Assembly: GCA_045616565.1 (NCBI GenBank)
Contig: JAZLHB010000144.1
Span: 18,216 to 82,215 of the forward strand
Direction: 5' to 3'
DNA length: 64,000 nt
Source: Akkermansia sp.
Lineage (GTDB): Bacteria > Verrucomicrobiota > Verrucomicrobiia > Verrucomicrobiales > Akkermansiaceae
Every line of letters begins with the position of its first letter. The stretch's first letter is position 1. Below the pieces are notes generated by a model. That model did no database searches. It saw only the letters and a program-made list of their open reading frames with translations, and was not told the origin of the DNA. The position numbers and the translations under genes are program-made. Shown here in pieces: positions 43,144-43,329 of the stretch.

Positions 43144-43329
43144 ATTATAGTTTTGCCAATACTGTATGCTTGGCAACATGGATTAAGCCTTGTGGCAGAG
43201 TGGATTGCAGCAGGGCGGAGTGGGGCGCGGGCTGCGTGTCAGGGTGCACGGCGTGAGCCAAAATTTGCTGGAATGGCAACTTTTCGCGGGATTTGGCTTG
43301 ACCTACAGTATTGGCAAACCTGTACGCTT
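43144..43329. promoter_or_regulatory. candidate invertible promoter element C (15-bp perfect inverted repeats flanking 137 bp; fixed TATAAT outside, mobile TTGACC inside)
   Basis: TTTGCCAATACTGTA at 43152-43166, reverse complement at 43304-43318. Minus-strand TATAAT at 43149-43144. TTGACC at 43298-43303. Confidence 0.55.

Follow-up and report, generated by a model that had tools for sequence, protein, structure and literature searches.

Putative invertible promoters, assembled in the OFF orientation, upstream of surface-protein genes in Akkermansia

Akkermansia is a gut bacterium associated with health and in development for probiotic use. Its surface proteins shape how it interacts with mucus, with phage, and with the immune system, and an inverted repeat upstream of one such gene raises the question of whether its expression is switched by the inversion of a short DNA segment. 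The initial annotation of a 64-kb stretch of Akkermansia DNA (referred to here as the window) had read this locus as a phase-variable invertible promoter caught in the OFF orientation and controlling a surface protein. The anatomy on which that reading was based was confirmed on the sequence. The repeat TTTGCCAATACTGTA at 43152-43166 is separated by 137 nt from an exact inverted copy of itself at 43304-43318. On the minus strand, TATAAT is present at 43149-43144 (ATTATA on the plus strand), 31 nt 5' of the ATG of gene C at 43112, whereas TTGACC is located at 43298-43303, just within the right repeat, and the hexamer that stands 17 nt 5' of the gene C -10 in the assembled sequence is CAAGCA (43172-43167). 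A repeat search showed that the exact 15-nt arms can be extended to 21 nt at 90% (43146-43166 and 43304-43324). We term this arrangement element C. The PEP-CTERM and autotransporter domains of the genes that adjoin the putative switches were identified by Pfam and NCBIfam, and gene C was indeed found to encode a PEP-CTERM surface protein. The coordinates of all features are provided in Table 1.

Table 1. Positions in the 64-kb window of the two candidate invertons and of the genes and sequence features associated with them.
Feature	Position	Strand	Remarks
Putative proximal recombination site, element C	43146..43166	.	21-bp imperfect palindrome; minus strand reads TACAGTATTGGCAAAACTATA
Predicted invertible interior, element C	43167..43303	.	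137 bp; OFF orientation as assembled
Putative distal recombination site, element C	43304..43324	.	plus strand reads TACAGTATTGGCAAACCTGTA
Fixed -10 of gene C, TATAAT	43144..43149	minus	outside the predicted invertible segment; ends 31 nt before ATG 43112
-35 of element C, TTGACC	43298..43303	plus	inner edge of the distal site; directed away from gene C
Putative proximal site, element A	40262..40287	.	26-nt arm; minus-strand TATGCT at 40268-40263 is the -10
Predicted invertible interior, element A	40288..40423	.	136 bp; OFF; -35 TTGAC(T) at 40419-40424, plus strand
Putative distal site, element A	40424..40449	.	26-nt arm
Gene A	37623..40244	minus	autotransporter with beta-barrel domain PF03797; probable start ATG 40202 or 40190
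Gene B	40777..41751	minus	PEP-CTERM paralog; non-invertible promoter
Promoter of gene B	41773..41801	minus	fixed TTGACC-17-TATAAT, without arms
Gene C	42117..43112	minus	331-aa PEP-CTERM surface protein with signal peptide; predicted controlled gene
D1 copy beside element C	43341..43745	minus	3' gene fragment with in-frame stop; abuts the distal site
XerC/XerD-type tyrosine recombinase gene	52127..53041	plus	sole recombinase gene in the window; about 9 kb away

The window contains a second element of the same build, missed in the initial annotation, at 40262-40449, 5' of the autotransporter gene A. Its arms comprise 26 nt at 88%, its interior measures 136 nt, TTGAC borders the right arm on its inner side, and it was also assembled in the OFF orientation. 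Elements C and A both consist of paired inverted repeats around a short intergenic segment, and their occurrence is far above chance: inverted exact pairs of at least 15 nt at a spacing of 30-300 nt were found on average 0.06 times per shuffled window. Furthermore, with up to 3 mismatches, the element C 15-mer occurs 6 times in the 64-kb window, as compared to an expectation of 0.64, and none of 100 shuffles reached 6 occurrences.

To assess the promoter logic of these elements, the same rule-based scan for sigma-70-like promoters, which operates at the consensus level only, was applied to the assembled and to the in silico flipped alleles. In the A/B/C region as assembled, gene B was the only one of the three genes for which the scan detected an adjacent promoter. 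The unflipped allele of element C gave no match on either strand, whereas the in silico flip of 43167-43303, a check that had been named beforehand, yielded the anticipated TTGACC-17-TATAAT for gene C with a score of 11/12. The corresponding flip of 40288-40423 generated TTGACT-18-TATGCT for gene A with a score of 9/12. The unflipped element A contained a single weak match of the same score (TTGCCA-17-TATCCT, sense strand, about 209 nt 5' of the ATG), and chance alone would give a match of this score about once per 4 kb. By this consensus test, a promoter aimed at the adjacent gene was present in the flipped orientation only, both for C and for A. An exact TTGAC-N(17-19)-TATAAT occurs once in the 64-kb window, at the promoter of gene B, with 0.00 occurrences expected; the earlier statement that a TTGACC-N17-TATAAT-like pattern precedes the tRNAs, acpP, rpsO, hemL, and lgt was therefore overstated. 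Judged from its sequence, the predicted promoter is split: the -35 forms part of the putatively invertible DNA, the proximal arm serves as the spacer, and the -10 is fixed outside, where it overlaps the outer half of the arm. The two arms of element C differ in this outer half, with CTGTAC in the distal and CTATAA in the proximal arm. Since the distal CTGTAC provides no -10, the OFF orientation would give no firing in the other direction, and a split layout of this type would thus result in a fully silent OFF state.

The comparison of the orientation of this segment in related genomes had also been named beforehand. A scan of species-representative genomes, for which an alignment of homologues served as the query, provided 12 loci from Akkermansia-like metagenome-assembled genomes, and L014, L016, and L043-L045 were added through ENA and Logan look-ups. 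Complete elements, with arms 134-150 nt apart, were present 5' of the homologous gene at seven loci of other Akkermansia-like assemblies. Including elements C and A of the window (winC and winA), there are nine complete elements, all of them 5' of homologous PEP-CTERM/autotransporter genes, and six are in the OFF and three in the ON orientation. In the OFF class (winC, winA, L003, L006, L009, and L016), the distal arm is followed, in the orientation of the gene, by GGTCAAGC. The remaining three loci, L005, L007, and L008, carry exactly the predicted ON allele, TTGACC + TACAGTATTGssaawac + TATAAT, so that both orientations exist in related genomes.

The identity between interiors of opposite class was much higher after reverse complementation, as illustrated by L006 and L008 (11% forward and 84% reverse-complemented), winC and L007 (15% and 70%), and L008 and L009 (60% and 91%); the distal flanks of the last pair are 83% identical and co-linear. 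The interior most similar to that of L008 is in fact that of L009, which is in the opposite orientation. When the interior alone was flipped, the number of identical columns increased from 194 to 256 for L008 versus L009, from 159 to 206 for L007 versus L006, and from 153 to 193 for L007 versus winA. After the in silico flip, the identity among related loci was unbroken across both arm/interior junctions, indicating that the inversion breakpoints are within the arms. As these ON/OFF contrasts are between species or between paralogous loci, they can be taken as proof of past inversions at the arms, not of ongoing programmed switching. An anecdotal observation concerns SPAdes contig JAUNNT010000068 (L010:1-23), whose start coincides precisely with the inner boundary of the proximal arm (TACAGTATTGgCAATACTATAAT...). 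This start fits a mixed ON/OFF population, since the assembly graph would branch at this position.

Several further candidates were discarded. Two short Logan contigs were checked for ends at the arm, as a proxy for mixed orientation, but did not show this feature and were plain fixed promoters. P0262 (2,677 cluster members), considered as an A. muciniphila locus, was found to be unrelated, AT-rich, and devoid of arms, and unrelated promoters precede L042 and the second autotransporter gene of L045. In viral contigs, paired-arm 10-mers gave only chance matches in a phage structural gene (L017 and L018), a 16-mer junction gave 23 chance matches in low-GC phage DNA, and the cps1 primer gave no match. 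No contig record was returned when the exact proteins of genes A and C and the homologues present only at NCBI (P0001-P0003) were looked up.

The right arm of element C is located at the edge of D1, a repeat of about 300 nt that follows each of the three paralog units (further copies at 40461-40760 and 41801-42100), as would be the case if the inverted repeat had arisen by chance or as a functionless by-product of the tandem duplication of gene cassettes. However, the left arm is outside D1, shuffled sequences almost never yield such a repeat, conserved copies of the element exist in no fewer than five other assemblies, and its flip produces a near-consensus promoter with one other occurrence in the window. 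We consider an origin by chance or as a by-product to be barely credible. All D1 copies in the window are truncated, and the sole full-length copy seen (L007:2511-3713) encodes 400 aa. D1 abuts the distal arm in winA, winC, L003, L007, and L016 and a fixed promoter in L001 and at gene B of the window (winB); it appears to have been duplicated along with the promoter and gene unit.

Conservation was determined from an alignment of the nine elements, in which all interiors had been normalised to the ON orientation. The distal site was 94% conserved, with 18 of 21 columns invariant, and the proximal site 93%, with 14 of 21 columns invariant. The interiors, which are non-coding and 134-150 bp long, were 56-68% conserved, and their best-kept block was the -35 end, AAAAACGCyTGAA...TTTTTTGC..GATTgggCTTGACC. 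TTGAC(C/T) was found at the same interior end in all nine elements, including the six OFF copies, and a -10 is present just outside in all nine (seven times TATAAT and once each TACAAT and TATGCT). In the six OFF copies, the -35 and -10 are about 137 nt apart and on opposite strands. A -35 that is useless in this orientation would hardly be expected to be conserved if the elements did not regularly adopt the ON state.

Each site forms an imperfect palindrome of 21 bp, TACAGKWTT-SSS-AATACTRTA, with an asymmetric centre that has opposite orientations in the two sites. This would be the layout expected of sites that are bound by recombinase dimers and placed in inverted orientation. At L007, the central bases differ between the two sites, a mismatch that would hinder some recombinases. 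Terminal inverted repeats of 21-26 nt around some 137 bp, a total size of about 180 bp, and the presence of several copies per genome are also features of a MITE or another selfish repeat, which could be upstream of surface-protein genes by chance. Such an origin is nevertheless very improbable, since target-site duplications are absent in the nine elements, and all copies found occupy the same position with respect to the homologous surface-protein gene and keep the -35 and -10 in register. In addition, the arms are far more conserved across species than the interior, a search with the arm 15-mer (up to 3 mismatches) revealed no copy besides C and A in the 64-kb window, and the existence of both interior orientations between fixed flanks would be left unexplained. 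The possibility that the inverted repeat forms an RNA hairpin is unlikely, because the arms in the ON state are upstream of the predicted transcription start.

Apart from the complete elements, the -35, the arm, and the -10 were found without a distal site at no fewer than six homologous genes (L004, L013, L014, L043, L044, and the first gene of L045), and these six fixed promoters stand directly after an unrelated gene or a terminator. A metagenome scan for the proximal arm followed by the -10 retrieved one locus, L013, which is of this locked-ON form. About 35 nt 5' of the L014 arm, including the -35, correspond to the distal end of the L016 interior in reverse-complemented form, and the last 27 are identical, so that L014 looks like a deletion derivative of an element in the ON state. 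A locked-OFF junction without a partner site was not seen among the loci compared. Because the predicted promoter is split, simple deletions would repeatedly have given rise to permanently ON promoters.

The retention of the arm in these fixed promoters implies that it may have another role, for example as an operator. In the strongest version of this idea, the palindromic 21-bp sites are operators of a dimeric transcription factor that acts by DNA looping, and the differences in orientation reflect rare recombination accidents. This would be in line with the palindromic nature of each site, with the position of the proximal site between the -35 and -10, which is classic for a repressor, with the persistence of the arm where the partner site is missing, and with a centre-to-centre distance of about 158 bp, or some 15 helical turns. 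It does not account for the perfect conservation, in six of the nine elements, of a -35 on the wrong strand at a distance of some 137 bp, and the corresponding genes would stay promoterless. Nor would it predict breakpoints that fall precisely within the arms, interiors that exist in both orientations, or the fact that the closest relative of the L008 interior, in L009, has the opposite orientation. Furthermore, Akkermansia promoter invertons of similar size and gene context have been documented with sequencing reads (PMC11892184, PMC13343947). An operator pair in place of an invertible segment is hence improbable, whereas an operator role in addition to inversion could exist.

The comparative orientation data, the position of the breakpoints, and the pattern of conservation support the initial proposal of a phase-variable invertible promoter caught OFF in front of a surface-protein gene, and we consider it very likely that elements C (43146-43324) and A (40262-40449) are functional promoter invertons. 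According to this model, a site-specific recombinase encoded elsewhere would pair the two 21-bp sites and invert the intervening stretch of approximately 137 bp. One end of this stretch would consist of the -35 (TTGACC) and an A/T-rich block upstream of it, the gene-proximal site would provide the spacer of 17-18 nt, and the -10 (TATAAT for C and TATGCT for A) would be fixed just outside. In the assembled state, the -35 would face the distal site, which has no -10, leaving C and A without an adjacent promoter and both genes OFF, and inversion would place the -35 beside the spacer and the -10 and turn the gene ON. Inversion would be enzyme-driven, reversible within the population, and decisive for transcription, and a single trans-acting invertase would serve all copies.

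A Pfam analysis of about 45 candidate ORFs across the window identified no dedicated invertase, and there is no recombinase gene within several kb of elements A and C. The product of the only recombinase gene (52127-53041) exceeded a single NCBIfam cutoff, that of a generic tyrosine-recombinase subfamily (317 bits versus 279), and scored below those of the XerD and XerC equivalogs and far below those of tyrosine-invertase models; this XerC/XerD-type gene is at best a weak candidate for the invertase. D1 was rejected as a recombinase, as it has no Pfam, NCBIfam, or significant PDB match and no recombinase signature, and the ORFs to the right of element C (43772-44825) had no family matches. The related elements were also without a recombinase gene within 4-5 kb, except for a prophage-type integrase at L016. 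A trans-acting invertase that is encoded elsewhere would be the most economical reading of these data. At L016 (1-4074), a tRNA gene, the gene for the 416-aa integrase, and phage tail-fibre genes are located just 5' of the D1 fragment and the inverton, which suggests that inverton cassettes are placed at prophage or island borders.

Invertons have been described in this genus. In the PhaVa survey, in which Akkermansia strains were the only Verrucomicrobia, they had the highest number of intergenic invertons per genome (PMC10028968). PhaseFinderDC assigned 32 A. muciniphila invertons to "group 138", which is enriched next to PEP-CTERM proteins (PMC11892184) and which, in the account given there, agrees with Jiang et al. 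(2019, Science 363:181) in its repeat and promoter motifs. One example neighbours two autotransporter genes, its 17-nt repeats are separated by about 157 nt, and its orientation shifts across mouse generations (PMC11892184). The A. muciniphila cps1 inverton has been validated by PCR, restriction digest, and qPCR (PMC13343947). The host genus is common to these invertons and to the elements reported here, as the relatives of the window proteins are named Akkermansia sp. Both groups are short and intergenic, with repeats of 17-21 nt around some 140-160 bp and a sigma-70-like promoter, and both have PEP-CTERM and autotransporter neighbours and no invertase linked nearby. In addition, the GGATT-N4-TTGAC at the -35 end of our elements resembles the cps1 orientation primers GGGATTACTATTGACACCG. 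In contrast, the arms found here (TACAGTATTG and CAATACTGTA) do not match CGGATT..AATCCG, the Akkermansia inverted-repeat motif in the second-hand form quoted in PMC13343947, and the available portions of these reports describe neither a -35 inside and a -10 outside the segment nor palindromic sites for the A. muciniphila invertons. A full-text literature search for the arm sequence returned unrelated primers only, the supplements of PMC11892184 contain no inverton sequences, and a search for the cps1 locus by way of its Wzc homologue retrieved only EPS-type Wzc proteins of 720-765 aa and none of the 800-aa type of cps1.

Elements A and C are thus of a known kind by host, size, gene context, and logic, and Akkermansia promoter invertons have already been published. 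The split promoter, the consensus of the palindromic 21-bp site, and the recurrent locked-ON derivatives may be new details. It is conceivable, although we would not favour it on present data, that they represent a separate inverton family of non-muciniphila Akkermansia, with its own TACAGKWTT-SSS-AATACTRTA site, which would act as spacer, contribute to the -10, and possibly serve as an operator, and with its own trans-acting invertase. The promoter of such a family would be truly split, and in the OFF state neither strand would be transcribed.

Similar designs exist in other bacteria. Bacteroides fragilis possesses many dispersed promoter segments that share one inverted-repeat consensus, control surface structures, and are served by a recombinase in trans; these polysaccharide promoter invertons are reportedly flipped by the global serine invertase Mpi (Krinos 2001; Coyne 2003; both cited in PMC11892184). 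In Bacteroides, the invertase is known and a whole promoter of the -33/-7 type is inside the segment, whereas the promoter found here is split and of the TTGACC/TATAAT type. The fimS switch of Escherichia coli measures 314 bp, has 9-bp repeats, contains the whole promoter, and is adjacent to the genes for the tyrosine recombinases FimB and FimE. Our elements resemble it as invertible promoters with ON/OFF control of a surface structure and a silent OFF state, but no recombinase is adjacent to the elements of the window or to the related elements. The hix and gix sites of Hin and Gin are imperfect palindromes with two half-sites around a short asymmetric centre, as are the sites described here. 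Segments of the Hin type measure about 1 kb or more and include the invertase gene and an enhancer. The segment of element C, in contrast, measures 137 bp and has no coding capacity.

At least two adjacent surface-protein genes of the window are behind predicted ON/OFF switches, and the same switch occurs in several Akkermansia species in both states. The site consensus can be used to find all copies in a genome, to look for the invertase through co-occurrence, and as a basis for orientation-specific assays. A second autotransporter gene in the window (16951-19788, plus strand, 945 aa) has no arm motif upstream, indicating that not all such genes are under the control of a switch. Genes A, B, and C have in common a passenger-type repeat of about 27 aa (GNTVTMSGG-like; DNA repeat family D4), and their products differ at the C terminus, which is an autotransporter beta-barrel in A and a PEP-CTERM anchor in B and C. 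One passenger module thus appears to be used with two export or anchoring systems. The sites of elements A and C are near-identical and present in both relative orientations; one recombinase acting on both could in principle invert or delete about 2.7-3 kb with genes B and C.

Apart from its own NCBI record, the relatives of protein C share no more than 58% identity with it, and for protein A no relative exceeds 85%. The window also harbours an exopolysaccharide-type cluster at 2410-8060, whose products include a Wzz/tyrosine-kinase protein and one for polysaccharide export, and its Wzc-like protein has many relatives at 89-93% identity that are named Akkermansia sp. The housekeeping and EPS genes of this lineage are therefore well sampled, unlike the surface proteins that are predicted to be switch-controlled.

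Two other inverted repeats of at least 15 nt in the window were evaluated and rejected as invertons. The first is formed by divergent tRNA-Gly genes (2201-2272 and 2396-2466, with CCC and TCC anticodons), which give rise to an inverted repeat of 15-17 nt at a spacing of about 220 nt; this pair would be a false positive in a naive inverton screen. The second is an unrelated nested palindrome of about 620 nt (21172-21791), located between an aminotransferase gene (19891-21174) and the gene for a CBM9 protein (22320). It had no matching family in Rfam and consists of five nested inverted-repeat pairs and a central hairpin, including one pair of 26 nt at 100% in which each arm forms a hairpin of its own (CACGGG-TTGACA-CCCGTG). 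A near-identical copy of about 105 nt from the left end of the palindrome is located just 5' of lysS (44845-44950).
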